This document shows positions 3,751 through 15,251 of a DNA stretch of 64,000 nt, piece after piece. Under the pieces are notes generated by a model. The model made no database searches. It was not told the origin of the DNA and was given only the letters and a program-made list of their open reading frames with translations. The translations under genes and the position numbers were made by a program. Position 1 is the first letter of the stretch. Every line of letters begins with the position of its first letter. This DNA comes from a bacterium (GTDB lineage Bacteria > Patescibacteriota > Gracilibacteria > Peribacterales > Peribacteraceae). The stretch spans positions 5,759 to 69,758 of the forward strand of contig JAKQEM010000014.1 in the NCBI GenBank assembly GCA_029558515.1, read 5' to 3'.

Positions 3751-4965
3751 ATGACTATCCGCCTGCTCTCCTCCCCCGCCGACCTCACCGCCTACAACGC
3801 CTGGGTTGCCGCCCATCCGCACGGCAGCCTGTGGCAGTCGGTGACATGGAAGAAGTTCCAGGAAGCGATCGGGCGCGAGGTGCGCATCTTTGCTGCATTC
3901 GATGAGGGAACGATACGAGCATCCGCGTTGGTCGTGATCGATAAGACGAGTTTTGGACTGAGTACGTGGGACATACCGCGCGGCCCTCTGGGGCCGGCGG
4001 AAATGCTAAATGCTAAATGCAAAATGCAAAATGATCCGGTGAAAGTGCTCTTGCAGACAATCGTTGATGATGCACGGAAGATGCGCAGTCTCAGTGTGTA
4101 CTATTCTCCTCAGCAACCATTGCTCATTTCTCATTTTGCATTTCGCATTCGCGCCTCAGCGCGACATGAGCAACCCGAAGCCACGCGCATCCTCGACCTG
4201 ACGCAAGCGGAGGAAGCGATCCTCGCGCAGATGCATCCCAAAGGAAGATACAACATCAAAGTGGCGCGGAAGCATGGCGTGCGCGTGGAACAATCGGCCG
4301 CGACCGATGCGAACTCCTTCGCATATCTCGCGCAGGAGACCGCCAAACGCGACGGGTTTCGGGCGCTTTCCGCCGCGCATTACCGGGCGTTTCTGGAGAA
4401 TGTGGAGGGGAGTTTCCTATTGATTGCGAGCGCACCCTTCCTCTCCCCCCCGGCCCCCCTCTCCACGGGAGAGGGGGGAGACAAGCCTTGTCCCCCCTTC
4501 CTCCCATGGAGGAAGGGGCCGGGGGATGGAGGAAAAGAACCTATCGCCGCCCTCATCGGCACCGTCTGGAACAAAACCGGTTATTACTATTACGGCGCAT
4601 CCGACTACGCGCACCGCAGCCTGATGGCCCCGTACCTCTTACAGTGGGAGGCGATGCGGTACTGCAAAGAGCGAGGATGTGAGAAGTATGATTTGCTGGG
4701 AATCGCCCCTCTCCCCCCTTCCCCCTCTCCACGGGAGAGGGGGGGGACCAATTTCGGTACCAGTCTCCCCTTCCTCCCGCTTGCCCTGAGCGTAGTCGAA
4801 GGGTGGAGGAAGGGGCCGGGGGATGGAGGTCATCCCTGGCAAGGAGTTTCTTCCTTCAAGGAAAAATTCGGCGGCACCGTCGTCTCCTATCCCCCGGAGC
4901 AGGAGATTTTGCTCCGGCCGATGCTGAAGAGAATGCTGGGGTGGAAGAGGAGGATGGTGGGGTAA
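3751..4965 (+). CDS. FemAB-family peptidoglycan interpeptide-bridge aminoacyltransferase (FemX/MurM-like) carrying in-frame repeat insertions
   Basis: Family-typical motifs are present: HPKGRYNIKVARKHGV, GYYYYGASDYAHRSLMAPYLLQWEAMRYCKERGCEKYDLLGI and SSFKEKFGG. The ORF is about 75 aa longer than the conserved blocks require because of two GC-rich palindromic inserts. Confidence 0.8.
   Translation: MTIRLLSSPADLTAYNAWVAAHPHGSLWQSVTWKKFQEAIGREVRIFAAFDEGTIRASALVVIDKTSFGLSTWDIPRGPLGPAEMLNAKCKMQNDPVKVLLQTIVDDARKMRSLSVYYSPQQPLLISHFAFRIRASARHEQPEATRILDLTQAEEAILAQMHPKGRYNIKVARKHGVRVEQSAATDANSFAYLAQETAKRDGFRALSAAHYRAFLENVEGSFLLIASAPFLSPPAPLSTGEGGDKPCPPFLPWRKGPGDGGKEPIAALIGTVWNKTGYYYYGASDYAHRSLMAPYLLQWEAMRYCKERGCEKYDLLGIAPLPPSPSPRERGGTNFGTSLPFLPLALSVVEGWRKGPGDGGHPWQGVSSFKEKFGGTVVSYPPEQEILLRPMLKRMLGWKRRMVG
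4001..4035. repeat. heptamer array AAATGCT AAATGCT AAATGCA AAATGCA AAATGAT inside femX-like ORF
   Basis: Five tandem 7-mers, translated as (E)MLNAKCKMQND. An inverted partner lies at 4123-4152. Confidence 0.85.
4123..4152. repeat. heptamer array CTCATTT CTCATTT TGCATTT CGCATTC inside femX-like ORF
   Basis: Reverse complement of the AAATGCA-type units at 4001-4035. Translated as LISHFAFRIR. Confidence 0.8.
4435..4532. repeat. GC-rich nested-palindrome element, short form, in frame inside femX-like ORF
   Basis: CCCCCGGCCCC-CCTCTCC-ACG-GGAGAGG-GGGGAGACAAGCCTTGTCCCCCC-TTCCTCC-CAT-GGAGGAA-GGGGCCGGGGG. Translated as PFLSPPAPLSTGEGGDKPCPPFLPWRKGPGDGG. Confidence 0.9.
4706..4829. repeat. GC-rich nested-palindrome element, short form with expanded loops, in frame inside femX-like ORF
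   Basis: Same modules as 4435-4532, with extra sequence in two loops. Translated as PLPPSPSPRERGGTNFGTSLPFLPLALSVVEGWRKGPGDGG. Confidence 0.85.
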
Positions 4966-5213: not shown

Positions 5214-8200
5214 TCAGTCAGCCATCAACGTGGAGAAGATCGTCGTTTCTGCGTTCTCAACCCAGAAGAAGGTCTCGTAGCCATCGGTCCACTTGATGTT
5301 GCCATCCGTGTCGGCAAACGCGTTCTCCGCCTGGTCGCTGAAGTTCGTAAGAGAAACCTGCAGCGAGGAGTTCGATGTATCAGTGACGTGGTTGTCATCG
5401 ACATCGGCCTCCAAGGAGAATGAAACAGACTGACCGCTCTTCACCTCTGTATCGAGGGACGTGCTGTCATCGCTGCAACGAACTTTCAGAGCACCGGTGG
5501 ACGCAGTTGCACTGGCGGTGCATTCAATCTTCGTCGTGGGCTGGTCGGTCCTGTACCACTTGAACTGTCCGCTGTCGAAGTCGATGTTCGTCGCCGCAAC
5601 CGTGAAGGTCACGCCCGTGAGGGTGGCGGAGTTCGTACCGCCCGCCGTGTTCGTGTTCGTCGGAGCCGTGAACTCGAAGCGAGCGATTTCCTGGTCGATA
5701 CCGCTCGGCAGAGCGCGAGCAGGCATCTTGTTCGCGATCGCAGAGAACTTGGCAAGCACGATGTCGTTGGCACTGCCCGTGATGCTGGTGCTGGTGGCAC
5801 TCGTGCGGTTGCCGAAGACCACTTCACCATCGGCAGTGTCGTCATTGTTGTTCACGCTCAGCTCGTTGCTGGACTGGACGCCCGTGGCGACGACGCCGCC
5901 GGAACCGGTCCAGAAGGTGACACCCGTCGACGAATTGGCGCCTAAGACATCGTTATTGACGCGGGGGCGCACCGTCAGAACAACCGGCGTGTCCTTCTTT
6001 ACAATGAGCTGGCTGGTGCCAAGGTTCACGCAGAAGACCGTTCCTTCATCCGCCAAGTTCGACACTGTCACCGTGCAGGGAGAGAGCGTCGCCAACTTGG
6101 TCGTCTCTGCATCCTTGAAGATCTCCAGTTGGGAGATGGCTGCTGCGGCATCTGCCGTCGCACCCGTCGCCGCAATGCGGATGGTATCCACACGGACGTC
6201 TTCATTCTGCGATGTCAGTTCCAGGCGGAGGACGGAGTCACCCAGCGTACCTGCCAGAATCTGGCGGGAACGCGGCTTGGTGTCTTCCTCCACGAACAGA
6301 TCACCCTGGTTCACGATGGTGTAGTTCTTACCGGCTGTCGTGTCCGGCGTCACCGTGATGCTGGATCCGGCATCTGCTTCCTCCATTTCCATGGCGTTCA
6401 TTTTGATTTGCAGCGCGTTCATATTCGGCGGATTGGAAGCGACATCTGCATGCACTTCGAAGATGACCGTTGCTTCCGCCGCCACTTCAAATCCTTTGCC
6501 GCCATTCAAATCATCAAACGTTACGGTTCCGCCGGAAGCGGAAGCCGCCACGCCCTTCTCGAGGATCGTATCGACGATGGTGTCACCGTCACTGTCCACC
6601 CACAGCGCGTAGTTCTGCGCGTTGAGCAGGTTGCCGGCGGCATCCTCGAAGGTGGCACTCGTCACCAGAGCATCGGAGGCCGCACCGGGCGTCACGTCAA
6701 ACCGGAGCAGGTTGATGTTCTGAGCCTTGCGCACCGTCGTTTCCGTCGCTCCGATGCTGCGCACCGCGACCGTCACCGTGGGAGCGACGATGATGTGCGT
6801 GCTTCCCGTCACGATGGAACCAGGGCGAATATCCGTGAGCGTCTTGCCCGTGGTCACGCCTTCCGCATCAACGTTTTGCAAAGGTGTGAAAGGAGCGCCA
6901 CATGCACCATCCTTGGTACAAATGGCGGCCTGGAAGCGGCTGTTGGCTACGACGCCGGTGATGAAGTCCACCGTCAATTCGAAGTTCTCCTGCTTCTCGA
7001 TGAGGAAATCATCGAAGCGGTAGATGTAGTAGCCTGCTGTGGAGCTCGCGCCGACCGCAGTCGCGGAGATGGAGCGGGCGGTCTTGGTGTTACGCAGCGT
7101 GACATCCTCCACATAAAGCGGGATATCCGCCGCCGTCTGCGCCGTTCCGGCGCTATCGGTATGATAGATCGCAACGAACAAATCACGAACGTCGACGGCT
7201 TCCGCACCCGGGGTGAAGATCACCTCGGCGAGCACTGCGTCATCACTGTCATCCGTGTACTTCTGCTGTGCGGGCCCATCGACCTCCACGGTCAACTGAC
7301 CTGCCTGCAGCGTCACGGGTGTCGCTGCGGGATCACCGTCTCTGGCAACCGGCGAACCGAAGAGCTGACCGCTCTTCCCCTTGCCGTACAGCGAACCGAC
7401 GACAAAGAGATCGGACAGTTCTTCGAGTTCAAACTTCACGGTATCGGCAGCGCCACCGACGGTGTCGGCGAGCACTTCGATGAGCAGGGTGTCTCCTGAC
7501 AAAATGACGCGGGGAGGATCGAACGTGAAGGTCACGTAGTCACCCGTTGTCGTCGCAACAGTGTTGCTCAGGACCGTGCCGTCCGTGCGCGCGAGGCGCA
7601 GGTTGGTCAGGTCGCCATCGGACGCCGTACCCGTCTGCTCCAGCGTGATGCTGTAGACAGCTTGGTCTTCATTGCTATCAGCGGCGAGTTCGAACTTCCC
7701 GACTTTCACTTTGCTCTCGCCGACATCCACGGTGGCGGGCGTCACGCTCTTGTACTCGAGCGTCACGGTCCCGGACGTCACGGCGGCAAGCTTGAAGGTG
7801 TTCCCGGCCATCGGGAAGCTTCCCGTCACTTCCTTCGCGTTGCTCTGGAAGTCGGTCTTCATTTCCACACCCAGGACGTGCTCGGCACCGGCAATCTTAT
7901 CGGTGGCGATGTCCGCGACGATATCGATCGTCTCAGAACGGCATGCCTGAATGGTCAGAGGATTCGTCAAACGCAAATCGGCCGTCTGATCATTGGTATC
8001 CAGCGATCGTCGGCGGGAGATGCGACCGCCATCCTTCGTCACGTAGACACCAAGGAGATCGGTCGTCAGTCCGTACCCGTCGTGCAAGACGGTGATCTCT
8101 TCGATCGTCACATCGTCATCGCAGGATGCCTCCAGATCCAGGCTCAGCATCACGACGCCGACTGCGCCCTGGGGCACTGTGTCGCCATCGGGGCTATCGG

Positions 8201-9194
8201 AAGCCACGGAGACTTCCAGGATGCCGTCACCCAGAACGATCTCCGTGTAACCGGAGAAGTCCATGGAGTCGGAAAAGGTCTCGCCGTCCGCCGCTTCCAT
8301 ATCGGTCACGGTGACGGTGTAGTCGCCGTCGGCATCGGTGGCCTCCGCGAGCGTGAGCTCGACGGTGGTGTCATCGACGACTTCGACAGACTCGACGTCG
8401 ATATCCGCGTCGCCGCTGATGGCGTAGCTGGCTGCCTCGGCAGCTGCTTCCTCATCCACGGCAACCGTGAAAGCGACTTCGATGACGTCCTCGGAGAGAG
8501 GCGTGACATCCTTGATGCCGGCCTCGGCGTCGCCGCCGCGCGCACAGTCCACACCGTAGGTGAGGTTCTGGTCCACGCGGTTGAGCATGACGACCATCTC
8601 GGCGCGGTTCATGTTGTCGCCGGGACGAGCGCGGCCCGTGGACTCATCGCCCTGCAGGACGCAGCTGTCGGCCGCCGTCTGCACGACGTCCGTGTACCAC
8701 TGTCCCGCGGGAACGTCCACGAAGGCGGGAGCGTCACCCGTCGCTTCCAGCGCGAATGCGCGAACGATGAGTGCCGCGGCCTCCGCGCGGTTGATGTTGG
8801 CGCCGGGTCGTGCGTTGCACGGCTTGGTGCCGGTGACATAACAGTCGTTGTCACCTTTGAGCCAGCCCTCCTTGGCTGCCTCTTCCATGTACCCGTAGTA
8901 CCATGCACCCGTCGCCACGTCGGCGAAGCTGGGGACGGCCGGGGGGGTGGAGAGAATTCCACCGTTGAGCTCAACGATGAGCTTGGTGAACTCCGCGCGG
9001 TTGGCGAGATCGCCGCCGCGGAAGCGGGTCTGGGTTGCGTCCAGGTAGCCGGCGTCCGTAAACGCTTCGACTGCCTCTTCGTACCAGACTCCTGCGGGAA
9101 CGTCGCTGTAGGCCGCAAATACGCTTCCCGCTTGGGTGAGCGCAATCGCCACGGCAGACATCCCTGCGAACAGTTTCTTCATGGAACTGGTCAT
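5214..9194 (-). CDS. SLH-domain S-layer-like giant surface protein
   Basis: Signal peptide MKKLFAGMSAVAIALTQAGSVFA is followed by three SLH-like repeats (YSDVP.G.WY...V....G, NRAEF/NRAEAAALIVRA). A Thr/Val/Asp-rich beta-type region of about 1100 aa follows. The start is placed at an internal ATG (9194, or 9182) just before the signal peptide. Confidence 0.8.
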   Translation of the reverse strand: MTSSMKKLFAGMSAVAIALTQAGSVFAAYSDVPAGVWYEEAVEAFTDAGYLDATQTRFRGGDLANRAEFTKLIVELNGGILSTPPAVPSFADVATGAWYYGYMEEAAKEGWLKGDNDCYVTGTKPCNARPGANINRAEAAALIVRAFALEATGDAPAFVDVPAGQWYTDVVQTAADSCVLQGDESTGRARPGDNMNRAEMVVMLNRVDQNLTYGVDCARGGDAEAGIKDVTPLSEDVIEVAFTVAVDEEAAAEAASYAISGDADIDVESVEVVDDTTVELTLAEATDADGDYTVTVTDMEAADGETFSDSMDFSGYTEIVLGDGILEVSVASDSPDGDTVPQGAVGVVMLSLDLEASCDDDVTIEEITVLHDGYGLTTDLLGVYVTKDGGRISRRRSLDTNDQTADLRLTNPLTIQACRSETIDIVADIATDKIAGAEHVLGVEMKTDFQSNAKEVTGSFPMAGNTFKLAAVTSGTVTLEYKSVTPATVDVGESKVKVGKFELAADSNEDQAVYSITLEQTGTASDGDLTNLRLARTDGTVLSNTVATTTGDYVTFTFDPPRVILSGDTLLIEVLADTVGGAADTVKFELEELSDLFVVGSLYGKGKSGQLFGSPVARDGDPAATPVTLQAGQLTVEVDGPAQQKYTDDSDDAVLAEVIFTPGAEAVDVRDLFVAIYHTDSAGTAQTAADIPLYVEDVTLRNTKTARSISATAVGASSTAGYYIYRFDDFLIEKQENFELTVDFITGVVANSRFQAAICTKDGACGAPFTPLQNVDAEGVTTGKTLTDIRPGSIVTGSTHIIVAPTVTVAVRSIGATETTVRKAQNINLLRFDVTPGAASDALVTSATFEDAAGNLLNAQNYALWVDSDGDTIVDTILEKGVAASASGGTVTFDDLNGGKGFEVAAEATVIFEVHADVASNPPNMNALQIKMNAMEMEEADAGSSITVTPDTTAGKNYTIVNQGDLFVEEDTKPRSRQILAGTLGDSVLRLELTSQNEDVRVDTIRIAATGATADAAAAISQLEIFKDAETTKLATLSPCTVTVSNLADEGTVFCVNLGTSQLIVKKDTPVVLTVRPRVNNDVLGANSSTGVTFWTGSGGVVATGVQSSNELSVNNNDDTADGEVVFGNRTSATSTSITGSANDIVLAKFSAIANKMPARALPSGIDQEIARFEFTAPTNTNTAGGTNSATLTGVTFTVAATNIDFDSGQFKWYRTDQPTTKIECTASATASTGALKVRCSDDSTSLDTEVKSGQSVSFSLEADVDDNHVTDTSNSSLQVSLTNFSDQAENAFADTDGNIKWTDGYETFFWVENAETTIFSTLMAD

Positions 9195-9763
9195 AGGAGT
9201 GTAAAGGATGAGAGAAATAAAAAAGGAGTACGTTTGGGTGTGCGATGTGGGGTTCCGTCGGATCCTTTGTGTTGTGGGGGAGGAATCGATCACTCGCCTC
9301 CTTACAACTAAAGAGAGAACACCGGATGCGGCGGCGCGCTTTGGCGCGATGGTTGATACGGAAAATGCACGATCGCCTTCTGCCTACTATAAGAAGGAAG
9401 AAAGGATGTGGAAACTCGCGACGGTCCACAGTCACGGGAACGTACGAGGGGCCGGTATGTGAATGATCCGTGCACAGATCCCACTGTCTTTCCGTACTGG
9501 CAAAAGAGGAGTGGAACCCGAGGATGCTACCGATGTGCCCTTGGTCACGGCAAGACATCGAAATCTCCTCGCGCACTCCCACAAACGCCCTCGTACCGCA
9601 CTCCGTTACGAGGCAAGAAAGAGCGACGGGACATTCTCGCAAGATAAATGGTCCAAATCGACAATGCATCAGTGGATTTCGCATGGGAAAATGATCAATT
9701 TTCTTATTCTCTCACGCAGCAACTTGTGTTGATGAAATGGGGAGTTGTGTTCTAAAAGTTTTC

Positions 9764-9958: not shown

Positions 9959-11389
9959 TCACCTCCTCCTGACCACCACCTTCTTTCCTGTGATCTGCAC
10001 TGCGTACCCTTCCGCAATCAACCGATCGCGAATGGCATCCGACGCGGCGAAATCTTTCCGCGCGCGCGCATCCTCCATCTGCTTCACACGGTCGAGCACA
10101 TCCGCGGGCACTGTCTCCTCTTCAGGGTCGAAGCAGCCAAACGTCTCACGCACCATCTCCACAAAAGATTGTACAGACGTTCCGGTGGAACGTCTCTTCA
10201 TACAATCAAAGATCACCGCCAGCGCCGCAGGCGTATTCAGATCGCCGTCCATCGCGGAACGAAATGAATCGATGAACAATCGTACGTCGTCGGTTCCCTC
10301 GGAATCCTCGGTTGCCTCGGTTGCTTCGCTACTCATCATCCACTCCACAATCTTCATCCTCGCCTTCCGCGCATCCTCCATCCCCTTCCAGGTAAATTTC
10401 AAATTGGTGCGGTAGTGCACCGACAGTAAATAGTACCGGAGATCGAGCGGAGAAAATCCCTTCGCGATGATCTGATCGAGCGTGAGCACATTGCCCAGAC
10501 TCTTGCTCATCTTCTCTCCGGCGAGATCGATCCGTCGCTTGTGCACCCAGTACTTCACGAACGGTGATTTGCCGGACACCGCCTCGCTCTGCGCGATCTC
10601 ACACTCATGGTGCGGGAAGATGTTGTCCTCGCCGCCGGTGTGCAGATCGATCTGCTGTCCGAGAAGCGCCGCACTCATTGCACTGCACTCGATGTGCCAG
10701 CCAGGGAATCCGTCGGGCAATTGTTCTCCCGATGGTCCGAGGGGCGAACTCCACCGCAGCGCATGGTGCTCGTTTTGTCCCACGCAAAATTTCCACAGCG
10801 CGAAATCCGCCGGGTGCCGCTTGCCTTCATGCACCGCGATGCGCGCACCGCTCTTCACCGCATCGACTTTGTTTCCGGAAAGTTGTCCGTACTGAGGAAA
10901 GCGAGAGACATCATAATAGATGCCGTCTTCGGTGACATAGGCAATCTCCTTCCGTAGCAAATCCGCAATCATCTCCTTCATCTGTTCGGTGTACTCCGAT
11001 GCCCGCGGGCGCTCATCGGGCGGAAGAATGTTCAATAATTTTTCATCCGCAATGAATTGCTCCTCGTACCCGCGCGCGATCTTCAAAACCGTCTCGTGCG
11101 TCACCCTGCCATATTCCTCGCGCGCCTTCTTTTCAATTTTATCTTCTCCGCTGTCTCCGTCGGCAACCAAATGCCCCACGTCCGTGATGTTCATGACGTG
11201 CTTCACCTCATACCCGCTGACCCGTAACCACCGCTTGAGGAGATCGGCCAGAAGATAACTGCTGAAGTTCCCGATGTGCGCGCGACCGTAGACCGTGGGG
11301 CCGCAGGTGTACATGGTCACCGCGGGCGGGCGGGCGGGAGCGAAAACTTCCTCCTTCTTCGTGAGGGTATTGAAGAGATGCAGGGGCAT
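9959..11389 (-). CDS. cysS: cysteine--tRNA ligase
   Basis: Contains MYTCGPTVYGRAHIGN (HIGH-type motif), KMSKSLGN and a class I synthetase layout. Start placed at MPLHLFNTL. Confidence 0.95.
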   Translation of the reverse strand: MPLHLFNTLTKKEEVFAPARPPAVTMYTCGPTVYGRAHIGNFSSYLLADLLKRWLRVSGYEVKHVMNITDVGHLVADGDSGEDKIEKKAREEYGRVTHETVLKIARGYEEQFIADEKLLNILPPDERPRASEYTEQMKEMIADLLRKEIAYVTEDGIYYDVSRFPQYGQLSGNKVDAVKSGARIAVHEGKRHPADFALWKFCVGQNEHHALRWSSPLGPSGEQLPDGFPGWHIECSAMSAALLGQQIDLHTGGEDNIFPHHECEIAQSEAVSGKSPFVKYWVHKRRIDLAGEKMSKSLGNVLTLDQIIAKGFSPLDLRYYLLSVHYRTNLKFTWKGMEDARKARMKIVEWMMSSEATEATEDSEGTDDVRLFIDSFRSAMDGDLNTPAALAVIFDCMKRRSTGTSVQSFVEMVRETFGCFDPEEETVPADVLDRVKQMEDARARKDFAASDAIRDRLIAEGYAVQITGKKVVVRRR

Positions 11390-11529
11390 GGGGGTAGAAT
11401 AATGGGAAATAGGGAATGGAGTAAGAGGGAGATACAAAAAAAACGGCCCACCTCTCTTGGAGTGATGAGCCGTTGCCTGGAGAGACTATAGATTGATGAA
11501 CTCTCCGGGCGAAAAATTCGCGCCTTCCG

Positions 11530-11682
11530 CTAGTTCCACAGAAGGCGTTCCTCTTCGGCCGTGATGATCTCTGCGATCACCTCGGCCAGGAGTTCCATGG
11601 AGCATTGCGCTCCGGAACCCCTTTTTTGCAGCATTCGGAGGACGTCCTCCTCCAACGCTGCAAGGTCGATCCGTTCTTCCAT
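11530..11682 (-). CDS. hypothetical 50-aa acidic protein (MEERIDLAALEEDVLRMLQKRG...)
   Basis: Canonical SD GGAGGAAAAATC lies directly before the ATG, which is rare in this window. A TTGACG-15nt-TGgTACAAT promoter sits about 85 nt upstream. No homology recognised. Confidence 0.45.
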   Translation of the reverse strand: MEERIDLAALEEDVLRMLQKRGSGAQCSMELLAEVIAEIITAEEERLLWN

Positions 11683-11773
11683 GATTTTTCCTCCATGAAA
11701 GATCGACGCCGCGTCGGTCCCACCCATCCGTTGCGTGGGGTCGCGGTAGTGCTATTGTACCACATTTGAAATT

Positions 11774-11800
11774 TCGTCAAACCAATCTTACTTGTTACCA
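11774..11800 (-). promoter_or_regulatory. sigma70-like promoter (TTGACG-15nt-TGgTACAAT)
   Basis: Read on the minus strand. About 85 nt upstream of the 50-aa ORF. Confidence 0.45.
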
Positions 11801-11828
11801 GAGAATTATTGTGACAGTATTTTGATAC

Positions 11829-11857
11829 TTGACAAGTCACCAAAAGTCGGCATACTG
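11829..11857 (+). promoter_or_regulatory. sigma70-like promoter (TTGACA-16/17nt-CATACT)
   Basis: Back to back with the minus-strand promoter. It points into the gene-poor repeat-rich stretch. Confidence 0.4.
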
Positions 11858-11917
11858 GTGCACTTTCTCCTGCTCCTTCTCTTTTCCGATGCGACGATGA
11901 CGGACGACGCGTGCACG

Positions 11918-12112
11918 TCACCCTGAGCATGCCGAACGGGTGACGAAGGCTTGATCTCCGATGGCGGTACATTTACCCTTCGTACCGATGAAGCAGTACT
12001 GCACCGTCGGCATGCACTTCTCCTGCTTCTCTTTTACGAAGCAGCGCGCGGCGTGATGTGGGAACAATCGGACCCCCTTCACCCCGCACGAGGAAAGCGG
12101 GGCGGTTTGCAT
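11918..12112 (-). CDS. possible small Cys-rich protein (MQTAPLSSCGVKGVRLFPHHAARCFVKEKQEKCMPTVQYCFIGTKGKCTAIGDQ...)
   Basis: Open frame with non-repetitive composition and a CTCTCCTC-ATG start context like other genes here. It lies antisense to a predicted plus-strand promoter, and no homology was recognised. Confidence 0.25.
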   Translation of the reverse strand: MQTAPLSSCGVKGVRLFPHHAARCFVKEKQEKCMPTVQYCFIGTKGKCTAIGDQAFVTRSACSG

Positions 12113-12250
12113 GAGGAGAGAGTGATCATTCACCCATTCGATTCCCTCAGGGTAAAAAGGCAAAGCTCCTTCACAGCAGCGGCTCAAGATATGCACTTTG
12201 TGGGGTGTGGTCTCATGGAAAGGGCCAAGGAGGCCCGAGGGCTCACACCT

Positions 12251-12290
12251 ATCTCCCCTCACCCCCCCGAACGGGGGGAAAGGAAAGATA
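12251..12290. repeat. short fragment of the GC-rich element (CTCCCCTCACCCCCCCGAACGGGGGGAAAGGAAAG)
   Basis: Shares the CTCACCCC terminus and a CCCCCC-GAAC-GGGGGG hairpin. Confidence 0.5.
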
Positions 12291-12430
12291 TGAATTATTC
12301 GAAGAGAGCTTCGGCGGCAACGCCGAAGCAGAAACATCTGTCTGCGCGCAAGCGCAGGCAGATACGACGCCGCTGCCGGCCTACCGGCGGCGGCAAGAAT
12401 CTAGCTGCCCTCTACGCAAAAAGGGCGTAG
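12290..12430 (+). CDS. possible 46-aa highly basic peptide (MNYSKRASAATPKQKHLSARKRRQIRRRCRPTGGGKNLAALYAKRA)
   Basis: An AAGGAAAGAT SD-like sequence lies before the ATG. The ORF sits inside a repeat-rich, gene-poor stretch. No homology recognised. Confidence 0.2.
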   Translation: MNYSKRASAATPKQKHLSARKRRQIRRRCRPTGGGKNLAALYAKRA

Positions 12431-12438
12431 AGAGCAGC

Positions 12439-12478
12439 AAAAAAATGCCCGGGGCCCCTCTTTGAGGAGGCCCCGGGC
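12439..12478 (-). terminator. intrinsic terminator (minus strand)
   Basis: GCCCGGGGCC / GGCCCCGGGC 10-bp stem. On the minus strand it is followed by ATTTTTTT. Confidence 0.6.
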
Positions 12479-12566
12479 AAAAAGCCACCTTCGACTCCAC
12501 CCCACATCGTGTATCCATCGCCCCATGGATCTGTCACCAAAGGGAAAGGAGGAAGGTGACAGAACC

Positions 12567-12605
12567 GGTGGAGAAGTCTCTACAGCAGCTTCTCCACCAT
12601 TTTTC
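12567..12605 (+). terminator. intrinsic terminator (plus strand)
   Basis: GGTGGAGAAG-loop-CTTCTCCACC followed by ATTTTTCTCTCT. It is preceded by a hairpin CTGTCACC-AAAGGGAAAGGAGGAA-GGTGACAG. Confidence 0.6.
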
Positions 12606-12748
12606 TCTCTGATGCCAGGTCCATGGGGCGCCCCGATTTTTCACACCACCGCACCATTGCCATCGATCTGCATTCGCAACTCCCGAAATGGAAGTAAGGC
12701 CCGGAATGGATCCGGCGCGGGAGGACGCGATGCAGAAAGGAGTCATCC

Positions 12749-12907
12749 ATGACCCAACGGAAAGACCTCCCGTGGCGGCTCGCCACGGAAGAGGTCTACA
12801 GGCGGGAGTTTCCGGTGCTCCGGACTCCCGCCAAAAAAATGAAGCCAAGGGCTCCGGTTCATCCGGCGCCTCTGGCGGGTCGTGCCCGCAAGCCAACGCC
12901 CAAGTAG
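12749..12907 (+). CDS. possible 52-aa basic peptide (MTQRKDLPWRLATEEVYRREFPVLRTPAKKMKPRAP...)
   Basis: AAGGAG lies 6 nt upstream of the ATG. The ORF is not in the track (<60 aa) and was translated by hand. No homology recognised. Confidence 0.2.
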   Translation: MTQRKDLPWRLATEEVYRREFPVLRTPAKKMKPRAPVHPAPLAGRARKPTPK

Positions 12908-13005
12908 GCTTGCGGGAATCAGGCGCCGGACACATCCTTGCGATGATGTCCGGCGCTACCAGTTCTTCGAATGCAGGTCGATCGCAATACGTTCCTCGTT
13001 CACAC

Positions 13006-13215
13006 TCTCCTCACCCCTATCCCCTCCCTGGCCGTCCGAAGCTGCGAGCATCGGCGAGGAGCGTAGGCGGCTCCATTCCTCCCCGACGCCAACGGAAGAG
13101 GGGATGTTTTCTTGTGTGGTTGTTCCCTCCATCCCCCTGCCCCTTCCTCCACGGGAGGAAGGGGGGGCAAGGCCTGTCTCCCCCTCTCCGGTGGAGAGGG
13201 GGTCGGGGGGAGAGG
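13006..13215. repeat. composite GC-rich element: long-form left half fused to a reverse-oriented short form
   Basis: CTCCTCACCCCTATCCCCTCCC...CCCCGACGCCAACGGAAGAGGGG is followed by CCTTCCTCC-ACG-GGAGGAAGG, GGGGGCAAGGCCTGTCTCCCC, CTCTCC-GGTG-GAGAGG and GGGTCGGGGGG. Confidence 0.85.
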
Positions 13216-13267
13216 TTTTACAACGAGGAGGGGAAGGGGGTGAAGGAAATCGAGGAGAGAGAGCTTG

Positions 13268-13299
13268 AAAAAAGGACACCCGCGCACGCGCGGATGTCC
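13268..13299 (-). terminator. intrinsic terminator (minus strand)
   Basis: On the minus strand, GGACATCCGCGCGTGCGCGGGTGTCC followed by TTTTTT. Confidence 0.6.
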
Positions 13300-13470
13300 C
13301 CGTCCTGTCCTTTTGGCTGTGGCGACTGCGCAGAGTGCGCACGGGGAGCAAAAGACACCCCCACGATCGGCCCCTGGCCGTGGTGGACAGGACTCCCCAC
13401 CTCGCAAGAGCGAAGGGGTCCGCAAGTATCCCCCTTTGAGGAGGAGATGCAAGAGGGAGCTTTTCTTTTC

Positions 13471-13642
13471 CTCCTCACCCCTACCCCCTCTCCCTCCTGC
13501 CCCGACGCCAACGGGAGAGGGGAATCTTTGTTTTGTGTTTTTTGTTTTCTCTCATGACAAATAGCGCCTCCCTCTCCAGGGGGCATGCGGGCGGAATGGA
13601 GAGGGAGGTTGGGAGGGTGAGGAGGGAATAAGGAGAGTGAGG
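13471..13642. repeat. GC-rich MITE-like element, long form
   Basis: CTCCTCACCCCTACCCCCTCTCC...CGACGCCAACGGGAGAGGGG...TTTGTTTTGTGTTTTTTG...GGAATGGAGAGGGAGGTTGGGAGGGTGAGGAGG. Confidence 0.85.
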
Positions 13643-13664
13643 AAAATAAGAAGAGTTCATCAAG

Positions 13665-13701
13665 AAAAAGCCCCTCGTCTCCAGCAAACGGGGGCTTTTT
13701 T
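13665..13701. terminator. bidirectional intrinsic terminator downstream of csrA
   Basis: AAAAA-GCCCC-15nt loop-GGGGC-TTTTTT. Confidence 0.65.
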
Positions 13702-13724
13702 GGGCTGAAGCGGCGTACGCCGCC

Positions 13725-13919
13725 TCAGGCCTTATTTTCGGCGGCCGTAGCCGCCGTTTCTGGATGCTTCCGCATCCAGACTTCCTTTCGATCCACATCG
13801 ACGTCCGCCGGCGCCTCAATCGACAGCCGCACTCGGCCGCCCTGGATCCTCTCGACCGTCACTCGAATGCGATCGTCGATCACGATCGTCTCGCCGCATT
13901 TCCTTGACAACACTAACAT
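13725..13919 (-). CDS. csrA: carbon storage regulator CsrA (RNA-binding translational regulator)
   Basis: MLVLSRKCGETIVIDDRIRVTVERIQGGRVRLSIEAPADVDVDRKEV matches the CsrA family almost position by position. It is preceded by GGAGGAGGGAGCC-ATG. Confidence 0.95.
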   Translation of the reverse strand: MLVLSRKCGETIVIDDRIRVTVERIQGGRVRLSIEAPADVDVDRKEVWMRKHPETAATAAENKA

Positions 13920-14055
13920 GGCTCCCTCCTCCCCCCTACGGGGGACAACAAAAAAAATGTGAAAAACCGGAAGCTCTGCCCTAAACTGGACAGGGCAGAA
14001 TAAACAAAGTCTAATGAACTTTGCATCATTTGCAAGACTTTTCGCGCTCCCCGCT

Positions 14056-14143
14056 CATGGCTATTGGCTATTCGCCCTTCGTCATTTTGCATTTCCCATT
14101 TCCCATTTTGCATTATCCATTCTCAATTATCCATTATCCATCC
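14056..14143. repeat. long 7-nt-periodic array (GGCTATT x2; CATTTTG CATTTCC CATTTCC CATTTTG CATTATC CATTCTC AATTATC CATTATC)
   Basis: Direct 7-nt periodicity over about 88 nt in the divergent csrA/fbaB spacer. Confidence 0.8.
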
Positions 14144-14183
14144 TTCTATGCTACCCTTTCCCCCGATCCTTCCCCCCTCCCCC

Positions 14184-15251
14184 ATGCGCTCCATCGCCGA
14201 TATTCGCTCTCTCCTGGGTGATTCCGCCTTCCTGCTCGATCACACGTGCCAAACCATTCCCAAAGAGAAACTTCATCTGCCCTCGGTGCAGACGGTCCAG
14301 AGCGTCTTTGAACAGAGCGATCGTCCGGGCAAAGTCATCAAGAATCTCCTGGATCTCTACAATCACGGACGACTTGCGGGAACAGGGTACCTCTCTATCC
14401 TCCCCGTCGATCAGGGCATCGAACACTCCGCGGGCGCCAGCTTTGCCAAGAATATTGAGTACTTCGACCCGGAGAACATCGTGAAGCTCGCCGTCGAAGG
14501 CGGCTGCTCCGCGGTGGCCTCGACGCTCGGGGTGCTGGGCATGGTCAGCAAGAAGTATGCGGCGCAGATCCCCTTCATCGTGAAGATCAATCACAACGAA
14601 CTCCTCACGTACCCGAACAAATTCGATCAAGTGATGTTTGGCTCCGTGCAGCAGGCCAAGGACATGGGAGCTCTGGGAGTGGGAGCGACCATCTACTTCG
14701 GGTCGCCGGAGAGTTCGCGACAGATCGTGGAAGTGAGCCAAGCCTTTGCAGAAGCGCACCGGCTGGGACTCTTCACGGTGCTGTGGTGCTACCTGCGCAG
14801 CAGCGGCTTCAAGAAGGACGGCAAAGATTTCCATGTCTCGGCCGATCTCACGGGACAGGCCAATCACTTGGGAGTAACCATCGAAGCAGACATCATCAAG
14901 CAGAAATTGCCGGAAAACAATGGCGGCTACCTCGCGCTGGGACAGGAAAGCTCCTACGGCAAAACCGACAAGCGCGTGTACGAGCAACTCACGACCGATA
15001 ACCCCATCGACCTCACCCGCTACCAAGTGGCCAACTGCTACATGGGACGCATCGGGCTCATCAACAGCGGCGGCGCGTCGGGCGAAAACGACCTGCAGCA
15101 AGCGGTGATGACCGCGGTGGTGAACAAGCGTGCCGGCGGCAGCGGCCTCATCTGCGGCCGGAAGGCGTTCCAGAAATCTCGGGAGGAAGGCGTTGCATTG
15201 TTGAATGCGATACAGGATGTGTATCTGTGTGAAGAGGTAACTGTGGCGTAA
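14184..15251 (+). CDS. fbaB: class I fructose-bisphosphate aldolase (DhnA/FbaB type)
   Basis: Near-collinear with E. coli FbaB: [78 protein letters not shown] and [16 protein letters not shown]. Start placed at MRSIADIR. Confidence 0.95.

Follow-up and report, generated by a model that had tools for sequence, protein, structure and literature searches.

An rRNA-leader-type boxB-boxA module in an expanded, hairpin-dense spacer next to csrA in a Peribacteraceae genome

Between cysS and csrA in a bacterium of the family Peribacteraceae (assembly GCA_029558515.1) lie some 2 kb of DNA that hold few recognisable genes, and the question raised by this locus is what, if anything, such a stretch is for. 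We examined it within a window of 64,000 nucleotides (nt), the whole stretch of DNA that was analysed, to which coordinates refer unless a contig or another locus is named; it lies on an 80-kb contig of a 1.3-Mb genome in 49 contigs. A preliminary description had called the stretch hairpin- and GGA-rich and had suggested that it encodes Csr/Rsm-type decoy RNA or forms a compact CsrA regulon. What we find is not a sponge of the Csr/Rsm type. In this species alone, the spacer between cysS and csrA, 170-380 nt long in relatives with the same gene order, has grown into about 2 kb of non-coding DNA, which contains a boxB-boxA module homologous to those of ribosomal RNA leaders. We tentatively favour, at somewhat less than an even chance, the reading that it is a Nus/boxA-controlled plus-strand unit carrying Shine-Dalgarno (SD)-dependent small open reading frames (ORFs), heavily invaded by or built from palindromes.

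The module consists of a boxB-like hairpin followed by a boxA sequence, GCTCCTTCACAGCA (boxA #1; Table 1). Over 56-60 nt, 12126-12181 is 75-78% identical to sequences in four other genomes (G077, G076, G145 and G042); the homologues in G076, G077 and G145 (77-78%) sit about 120-330 nt before a 16S gene, and the G042 copy is at a non-rRNA site. boxA #1 agrees with the consensus of the relatives' 16S leaders at 14 of 14 positions, and hairpin and spacing are shared with it. A covariance model of the module (R1) matches 111 of 121 family genomes. Among its 30 best loci, 20 have the 5' end of a 16S gene 100-240 nt downstream. From this homology and distribution we conclude that 12126-12181 is an rRNA-leader-type boxB-boxA at a non-rRNA site. 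It lies on the same strand as, and about 300 nt downstream of, the best promoter match of the region (10/12).

The core of a second boxA-like sequence (boxA #2, TTTTTCACACCACCG) lies 470 nt further along the same strand, for which we estimate a chance expectation of about 0.003. This 10-nt core, TTTCACACCA, is identical to that of the host's own 16S boxA. In the host the 16S leader boxA is GCTCTTTCACACCA, 32 nt past its promoter, and the 23S leader boxA is GGTCCTTCACAGCA; side by side, the boxA regions of the two leaders read GCTCTTTCACA and GTCCTTCACA. The 16S boxA region also has an inverted copy in the 16S trailer, with which it forms a leader-trailer helix (L118, 1501-4400), an arrangement that has been studied in rRNA leaders (PMC10250234). 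In our stretch, the 5' arm of a long-range helix begins 10-20 nt after boxA #1 and after boxA #2 (at 12188 and 12656, respectively), and each boxA is followed by an SD-led small basic ORF, orf46 and orf52.

boxA sequences are known ahead of CRISPR arrays as well as in rRNA operons. The boxB-boxA-(boxC) leaders of rRNA operons act in antitermination, and boxA also has non-rRNA sites such as Escherichia coli suhB (Baniulyte et al. 2017, PMC5725501). The locus shares with rRNA leaders and suhB a boxA near the gammaproteobacterial consensus GYTCTTTAANA (PMC5725501), a hairpin before it, a promoter match upstream and homology to the family's 16S leader, and its boxA sequences likewise lie next to a long-range helix, at its 5' arm. 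boxA sits in the 5' leader of an SD-led ORF, as it does at suhB. However, no rRNA, Nus-factor gene or CRISPR array follows boxA here; there is a tandem pair of boxA sequences, and the small ORF after each lies about 100-110 nt away, not within 50 nt; and the host is without Rho, so that promoting or blocking Rho, as discussed for the suhB and CRISPR boxA, cannot apply as such. Another genus has a high-scoring non-rRNA boxB-boxA module, at G042:C71:1275-1348 (L110/L200) and G061:C24:9367-9441 (L209), with scores of 72 and 58 bits; it has its own promoter upstream and lies about 12 nt before AAAAGGAGGTG-GTG and an ORF of about 285 aa of uncharacterised function.

The SD sequences of the stretch stand out against the rest of the genome. 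SD cores precede 12% of gene starts, compared with 13% of random intragenic positions, and many start codons genome-wide have a -10 box 6-12 nt upstream; the mRNAs are therefore largely leaderless, and the genome is essentially SD-less. Within the window, the starts at 3751, 25849, 28873, 39201, 45207 and 49529 have such boxes (TATACT, TACAAT, TATAAT, TATAGT) 6-12 nt before them. In the gap between cysS and csrA, SD+ATG strings reach 3.2 per kb (8 observed, 2.6 expected), versus 1.05 per kb overall. The ORFs behind five of these strings are 31-64 aa long and include csrA, orf50, orf46 and orf52. The preliminary description had taken the SDs found here for the only canonical SDs of the window, which goes too far, since the window has 67 SD+ATG strings (mostly chance occurrences within genes), but the contrast with other genes that it had drawn is real. 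As a separate observation, the single 16S rRNA gene (C42:57065-60100) holds a group I intron near its 3' end (RF00028, 66.9 bits), and its 3' tail, GGAACAUCUCCUUACC, gives an anti-SD core of UCUCC, not CCUCC.

We scored coding potential per codon with a codon log-odds model trained on the long genes of the genome. The genes cysS, aldolase and csrA score 0.21, 0.31 and 0.16, and the 50-aa minus-strand ORF with an SD that had been pointed out at 11682 (orf50) scores a coding-like 0.25 that is specific to its frame. All remaining ORFs in 11728-13724 score at most 0.03 and no frame stands out, in agreement with the earlier view that these 2 kb hold no convincing protein gene. The test is weak for tiny basic ORFs, as a 72-aa ORF under purifying selection in relatives scores -0.21, and 11728-13724 may therefore still hold tiny ORFs. 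orf46 scores -0.04, and no homologue or protein family was found for it; orf52 has no homologue among 5.8 billion proteins. Profile searches of the small ORFs against Pfam, NCBIfam and PHROG gave no match, and a profile search also ruled out ribosomal protein L34 as the identity of orf46. The acidic orf50 product, whose sole match in the same 5.8 billion proteins is itself, is modelled by AlphaFold as a two-helix hairpin (pLDDT, the predicted local distance difference test, 86), with no match to the model in the PDB.

Relatives suggest that this arrangement is not confined to one genome. Genus-mates have an ORF-poor interval of 1.5-4.9 kb between the aldolase gene and cysS, and five of them appear to carry units of a boxA-like site, an SD and a small ORF at the same place, firmly so in G012 and G005 and more weakly in G001/G002 and G004, always pointing away from cysS. 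In G012 a promoter in the gap is divergent from that end, pointing away from cysS, and there are two boxA-like sites; about 100-135 nt past each come AAGGAG or GGAGG, an ATG and a small ORF. In G005 a stem, an SD and a small ORF come after a 19.8-bit R1 match in the same orientation, and the same order follows weaker R1 matches, again in the same orientation, in G004 and G001/G002. A 12-mer, TCACACCACCGC, is common to boxA #2 of the window and the equivalent G001 leader. The gaps of G001 and G002 align over their whole length and have three SD-led small basic ORFs in common (L085 4670-5578; L086 4668-5889), which have their own terminators. Of these, the 72-aa sORF3 (MRHQTVPS...) differs between the two genomes at 18 synonymous and 15 non-synonymous codons with no indel, from which we judge it to be under purifying selection even though it is non-coding-like by codon usage. 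What the relatives have kept is position, orientation and the layout of boxA, stem, SD and small ORF, but not the hairpin load; this shared layout speaks for a Nus/boxA-controlled plus-strand unit.

We infer transcription of such a unit, Nus loading and translation of orf46 and orf52 from the arrangement just described, as follows. The sigma-70-type promoter at 11829-11856 would start an RNA whose leader, CU-rich and about 260 nt long, ends in the boxB-like hairpin and boxA copied from the family's 16S module, with the boxA-like #2 further on. After each boxA, at 98-112 nt, an SD-led small basic ORF would lie within a very stable, helix-closed hairpin domain. NusB and NusE (S10), with NusA and NusG, would load on the nascent boxA, and the complex would keep RNA polymerase processive through the hairpin stack and the terminator-like 12567-12605; it may also set translation of the SD-led small ORFs, as boxA does at E. 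coli suhB. Because Rho is absent, the job of the Nus factors would be folding and read-through, not anti-Rho. The right-hand third (13000-13630) consists of ordinary dispersed BoxC-type palindromes, and csrA at the far end is a xenolog. Of the factors named, NusB is encoded at C4:6489-6857 (109.5 bits), adjoining RNase III (C4:5986-6375). If this is true, an rRNA-leader boxB-boxA acting outside an rRNA operon and without Rho would point to Nus targets beyond rRNA and anti-Rho in bacteria of the candidate phyla radiation (CPR). It would also mean that SD-led small ORFs cluster at one locus, conserved in position and not in sequence, in an SD-less, leaderless genome, and that cluster would be a natural system for what SDs, and the SD-binding CsrA, still do in such cells.

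The hairpin-rich character noted earlier is strongly confirmed. Compared with dinucleotide shuffles, the segments 12185-12520, 12515-12635 and 12650-12995 have fold z-scores of -11.8, -6.7 and -10.9, and the first has a minimum free energy of -193.6 kcal/mol versus -118 for the shuffles. Among 13,003 genome windows of 200 nt, corrected for G+C content, 12243-12442 and 12743-12942 rank first and second as the most over-folded, ahead of the rRNA genes and known palindromic repeats. Domain 3 encloses, besides the terminator-like hairpin at 12567-12598, a GGA-loop hairpin at 12531-12562 (an alternative fold), and two more with GGA in the loop lie in domain 4, at 12701-12715 and 12733-12742. No hairpin of 12185-12995 has a second copy in the genome or the family. 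We set aside the reading of the 21-bp terminal inverted repeat as an integron attC site or a miniature inverted-repeat transposable element, as there is no second copy and, by eye, there are no GTTRRRY cores. Over a longer range, 12156-12172 in the region of boxA #1 is complementary at 14 of 17 positions to 13453-13469, which borders a BoxC-type repeat 1.28 kb downstream; this pairing, which is statistically marginal, would enclose the entire structured part much as a leader-trailer helix does.

Such folding could also mean that the RNA itself is the product. In an rRNA-operon-like non-coding RNA (ncRNA) unit, a boxA-loaded polymerase would make a long untranslated RNA that RNase III cuts into three helix-closed domains (about 330, 110 and 330 nt) to give stable RNAs, and the small ORFs would be accidental. 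The short distance of 10-20 nt between each boxA and the 5' arm of the closing helix after it, reminiscent of boxA in the 16S leader-trailer helix, is consistent with this, as are fold z-scores that are the most extreme in the genome, two hairpins with GCAA loops, and the presence of RNase III and NusB in adjacent genes. However, neither the sequence nor the hairpin load is conserved in relatives, which conserve boxA, SD and small ORF rather than structure; G-U pairs show no strand asymmetry; perfect hairpins are rare in natural structured RNAs; and Rfam gives nothing at gathering score, group I and II introns and large ncRNAs included. We regard an ncRNA unit of this kind as unlikely.

Several observations weigh against a Nus/boxA-controlled unit with translated small ORFs. 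Some concern the module: its sequence was in the training set of R1, so that its own 71-bit score is circular; its boxB stem has one C·A mismatch in the 3' arm; and the Rho RNA-binding domain was not found in the host genome, so that the classical reason for a non-rRNA boxA is gone and any boxA function must be Rho-independent. Others concern the ORFs and the relatives: orf46 spans four perfect hairpins and has neither coding signal nor homologue, E values of 0.27 and 0.96 mark the boxA-like matches of G004 and G001 as weak, sORF1 and sORF2 of G001/G002 have no synonymous excess, and the small ORFs of different species could not be aligned with each other. The remainder concern the hairpins, which fold alike on both strands (-193.6 versus -195.5 kcal/mol) with 14 G-U pairs on each, a count that is uninformative on the RNA strand; the hairpin load is not conserved, as relatives' gaps reach only z-scores of -5 to -8; and other spacers of the host genome also contain arrays of unique hairpins, though smaller ones. 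Equal folding on both strands makes the hairpins look like DNA palindromes and does not single out the plus strand as an RNA.

These strand-equal hairpins, and the similar arrays in other spacers, make a functionless pile-up the main rival. It would hold the stretch to be mostly spacer in which palindromes or elements like the repetitive extragenic palindromic (REP) sequences, BoxC repeats and a stray rRNA-leader fragment have accumulated beside an acquired gene, the promoter, boxA sequences and ORFs being incidental. About one third of the stretch is indeed made of known dispersed repeats: GC-rich repeat copies had been noted earlier, and those at 13106-13216 and 13463-13627 belong to a dispersed family, with copies 73-97% identical on C4, C19, C30, C31, C35, C38, C44 and C47 and in G007, G010, G016 and G018, other genera included. 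The unique 1.3 kb (11728-13010) has no counterpart by BLAST in 200 family genomes, plasmids or phages; the only pieces of it that recur in the family are 11912-11948, with the hairpin GTCACCCTGAGCATGCCGAACGGGTGAC, and the module at 12126-12181. The boxB-like hairpin comes from a dispersed family that is also found inside genes, and spacer content varies among relatives. On the other side, boxA #1 matches the relatives' 16S leader consensus at every position, complete with hairpin and spacing, a second boxA core lies on the same strand, an SD and ATG follow both boxA sequences at about 100-110 nt with the same architecture in G012, G005, G004 and G001/G002, and 2 kb of junk would seldom be retained in a genome of 1.3 Mb whose spacers have a median length of 107 nt. 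We consider the functionless reading rather unlikely, yet well worth keeping in view beside the Nus/boxA-controlled unit. The stretch resembles clusters of REP sequences and bacterial interspersed mosaic elements (BIMEs), and BoxC/PIT repeats, in being an intergenic pile-up of GC-rich palindromes with true BoxC-type copies at 13000-13630, and differs from them in that the hairpins of 12185-12995 are single-copy. Similar elements were noticed elsewhere: at L120 5996-6086 a BoxC-type repeat, 82% identical to 13126-13215 and with a fold z-score of -11, directly follows the aldolase gene, and on C7 (2579 bases) repeated CCGTGGAC-N4-GTCCACGG hairpin units flank a minus-strand ORF, forming some of the most over-folded DNA of the genome in what looks like an IS200/IS605-type or REP-associated transposase unit.

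The size of the gap is unusual in the host and among its relatives. The interval 11728-13724 is the eighth largest of 823 gaps genome-wide, where the median is 107 nt, and the cysS-csrA spacer of 2335 nt in the window compares with 167 nt in L120, a metagenome Peribacterium locus with the same order of S-layer gene, cysS, csrA, aldolase gene and yidC, 274 nt in G010 and 379 nt in G011. Other origins of the stretch were considered and rejected. A plasmid or phage source is not supported by any BLAST match; a replication origin would not fit, the contig having neither a GC-skew switch nor a DnaA-box cluster; and a relic of a former 16S site is contradicted by the genes upstream of relatives' 16S leaders, which map to C42, the host's 16S contig. 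An assembly chimera is unlikely because both flanks of the 165 bp that csrA shares with planctomycetes (see below) are Peribacteria-like and syntenic, and because a second public assembly is 100% identical across 12.2 kb, although it may derive from the same reads. The closest metagenome relatives are not very close, as the top aldolase match is only 78% identical, and synteny is common to only two loci.

The proposal of a CsrA decoy RNA did not hold up. In the plus strand of 11860-12605 GGA occurs 15 times, where 17.0 are expected, or about once per 50 nt, which is chance; the stretch is thus not GGA-rich. The CsrB and RsmY/Z RNAs carry about one GGA per 15-20 nt. In a test against shuffled sequence the A(N)GGA motif does show a modest excess (A(N)GGA and AGGA together, 14 observed versus 8.5 expected, about 1.6-fold, p=0.05), but plain GGA is at expectation, and the best 150-nt windows reach only about the 99th genome percentile and lie partly within repeats. 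GGA is found in 3 of 18 predicted plus-strand terminal loops (about 1.5 expected) and in none of 19 on the minus strand. A relaxed Rfam search yields a single Csr/Rsm match, to RsmY (15.2 bits, E=1.2), below the gathering score of 57, and no GacA/UvrY-type palindrome TGTAAGN6CTTACA with three or fewer mismatches occurs in 11400-14100. The search for a conserved structured RNA beside csrA fared no better, as neither Rfam nor the 200 family genomes provide a counterpart of the unique 1.3 kb. GGA at chance level, few GGA loops, and a unique part without Rfam match or relatives leave the decoy-RNA reading unsupported. Compared with CsrB, CsrC, RsmX, RsmY and RsmZ of the Gammaproteobacteria, the stretch is alike in adjoining csrA, in its series of stem-loops and in a few A(N)GGA loops; it is unlike them in lacking GGA enrichment, GGA in most loops, an Rfam match and a GacA-type site, and unlike RsmY and RsmZ it is ten times longer and not conserved.

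A narrower link to CsrA deserves separate mention, in which either the plus-strand RNA sequesters CsrA or a small CsrA regulon is made up of the SD-led small ORFs and the csrA leader, most plausibly at orf52. In a genome without SD use, the few SD-led starts (csrA, orf46 and orf52) would be natural CsrA targets, SDs being otherwise unused. On the plus strand there are three GGA-loop hairpins, GGGCC-AAGGA-GGCCC (12222-12236), CCGGA-AUGGA-UCCGG (12701-12715) and AGAAAGGA; the last two lie about 25 nt apart, and the GGA of the third overlaps the SD of orf52. A(N)GGA is 1.6-1.8-fold over shuffles (p=0.01-0.05), no FliW was found in the host genome or in 30 relatives (31 genomes searched), and G001, G002, G004 and G005 likewise have csrA within 2-4 kb of the small-ORF spacer. 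Nevertheless, the GGA count equals expectation and few loops carry GGA, as given above, the RsmY match and the missing GacA box speak the same way, and L120, G010 and G011 have csrA without such a spacer. Moreover, csrA was recently imported, and a co-adapted local RNA would therefore be very young. A CsrA-linked locus is thus, in our estimate, quite improbable.

The assignment of csrA itself is secure: its 64-aa product matches Pfam CsrA (PF02599; E=2.2e-20), with residues 1-49 aligned to profile positions 1-49 of 53. Its relationships are unexpected for a Peribacteria gene. The protein is 87-92% identical to proteins of Pirellulaceae metagenome-assembled genomes, compared with only 44-60% for CsrA of genus and family relatives. 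Two Pirellulaceae contigs match the DNA of 13766-13929 at 91.5-92.9% identity, and four others do so at 83-86%. In a maximum-likelihood tree the protein falls in a clade (100/98 support) with six Pirellulaceae rows, and a separate clade of 18 Peribacteria rows holds all genus-mates. The Pirellulaceae-like segment of about 165 bp runs from the SD through codon 52; neither the C-terminal tail nor the flanking DNA on either side is related. By these comparisons csrA is a xenolog, and a planctomycete of the Pirellulaceae was the recent source of its core and SD. The strong SD of csrA in an SD-less genome is explained by its arrival with that patch. The position is native, as L120 has a native-type csrA at the same syntenic place, and it seems that the core of the resident csrA was patched with planctomycete DNA. 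Co-transfer of the hairpin region with csrA was rejected, since no DNA or translated similarity extends outside 13766-13929 and Pirellulaceae csrA loci are not hairpin-dense.

Horizontal transfer between CPR and other bacteria has served to infer hosts of Saccharibacteria. The csrA case is like such transfers in that a housekeeping-type regulator gene has DNA more than 90% identical across phyla, and unlike them in that only about 165 bp are shared, at the native csrA position of related Peribacteria. As a recent inter-phylum transfer into a CPR genome it would make Pirellulaceae a concrete candidate host or partner of Peribacteria. The boldest combination of these elements would be a new Nus/boxA-dependent, rRNA-operon-like ncRNA locus in a Rho-less CPR bacterium, in which a 1.1-kb RNA is folded, its domains freed by RNase III, perhaps working with the imported csrA, whose import may mark a Pirellulaceae partner or host; the Nus complex would there take an antitermination and chaperone role otherwise reserved for rRNA. 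We think this a long shot.

The remaining signals of the stretch concern transcription. The promoter region 11754-11856 is AT-rich and divergent, and of the back-to-back promoters described earlier the plus-strand site stands, being the best consensus match in 11000-14400. A minus-strand site is plausible, but at 11780-11754, whose TTGACG -35 hexamer is identical to that of the genome's 16S and 23S promoters, or at 11835-11808, and not exactly at 11774-11800. The presumed leader holds two CU-rich direct repeats (11867-11892 and 12017-12042) and, at 11917-11944, a reverse-orientation copy of the dispersed hairpin GTCACCCTGAGCATGCCGAACGGGTGAC, which scores 23 bits on R1 on the minus strand. This hairpin, GTCACCCTGAGC.TGCCGAACGGGTGAC (also at L100 4386-4422 and L101 4891-4928), is dispersed over many family genera, occurs inside coding sequence too, and when reversed is the boxB-like hairpin of 16S leaders. 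The T-run hairpins of the four proposed terminators are present, two of them on the minus strand and one bidirectional; that at 12567-12605 is nested in a larger helix.

Table 1. Positions of genes, signals and structural elements in and around the cysS-csrA spacer.
Feature	Coordinates	Strand	Details
S-layer protein gene	5214-9293	-	
cysS	9959-11389	-	
Terminator-like hairpin after orf50	11547-11521	-	hairpin scan
orf50, orphan 50-aa acidic protein gene	11530-11682	-	GGAGG-7 nt-ATG
Minus promoter candidate	11780-11754	-	TTGACG(11780-75)-15-TGgTACAAT(11759-54), by eye
Minus promoter candidate	11835-11808	-	TTGTCA-16-CACAAT, consensus scan
Plus promoter	11829-11856	+	TTGACA(11829-34)-16-CATACT(11851-56), consensus scan 10/12
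Presumed untranslated leader	11863-12125	+	fold z only -1.1
boxB-like hairpin and boxA module	12126-12181	+	stem TTCACCC 12129-12135 / GGGTAAA 12150-12156
boxA #1	12165-12178	+	8 nt past boxB-like hairpin
Hairpin domain 2	12185-12520	+	closing helix 12188-12212/12493-12517; seven near-perfect hairpins, two with GCAA loops; contains orf46
orf46, small basic ORF	12290-12430	+	AAGGA-5 nt-ATG; start 112 nt past end of boxA #1
Intrinsic-terminator-like hairpin, strong	12446-12479	-	13 pairs, then TTTTTTT
Hairpin domain 3	12515-12635	+	long-range helix 12519-12547/12602-12630, 24/29 paired
Terminator-like hairpin	12567-12598 (to 12605 with T-run)	+	10-nt loop, within larger helix
boxA #2 (boxA-like)	12637-12651	+	core TTTCACACCA
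Hairpin domain 4	12650-12995	+	21-bp closing helix 12656-12676/12968-12988, 19/21 paired; encloses orf52
orf52, small basic ORF	12749-12907	+	AAAGGAG-6 nt-ATG; start 98 nt past end of boxA #2
GC-rich palindromic repeats, BoxC / 'triplex-motif' type	13000-13630		copies ~13005-13230 (incl. 13106-13216), 13463-13627
Terminator-like hairpin	13268-13299	-	then TTTTTT; read from sequence, absent from minus-strand scan listing
Bidirectional terminator-like hairpin	13665-13701	both	just past csrA stop; plus 13677-13695 scanned, minus T-run by eye
csrA, 64 aa	13725-13919	-	Pfam CsrA (PF02599)
DeoC/LacD-family aldolase gene	14184-15251	+	yidC next

Along the contig the order is thus S-layer gene, cysS, the gap stretch, csrA, aldolase gene and yidC. 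Beyond csrA, the spacer before the aldolase gene holds arrays of heptamers at 14060-14140, with CATTTCC, CATTTTG and TTATCCA as their units.

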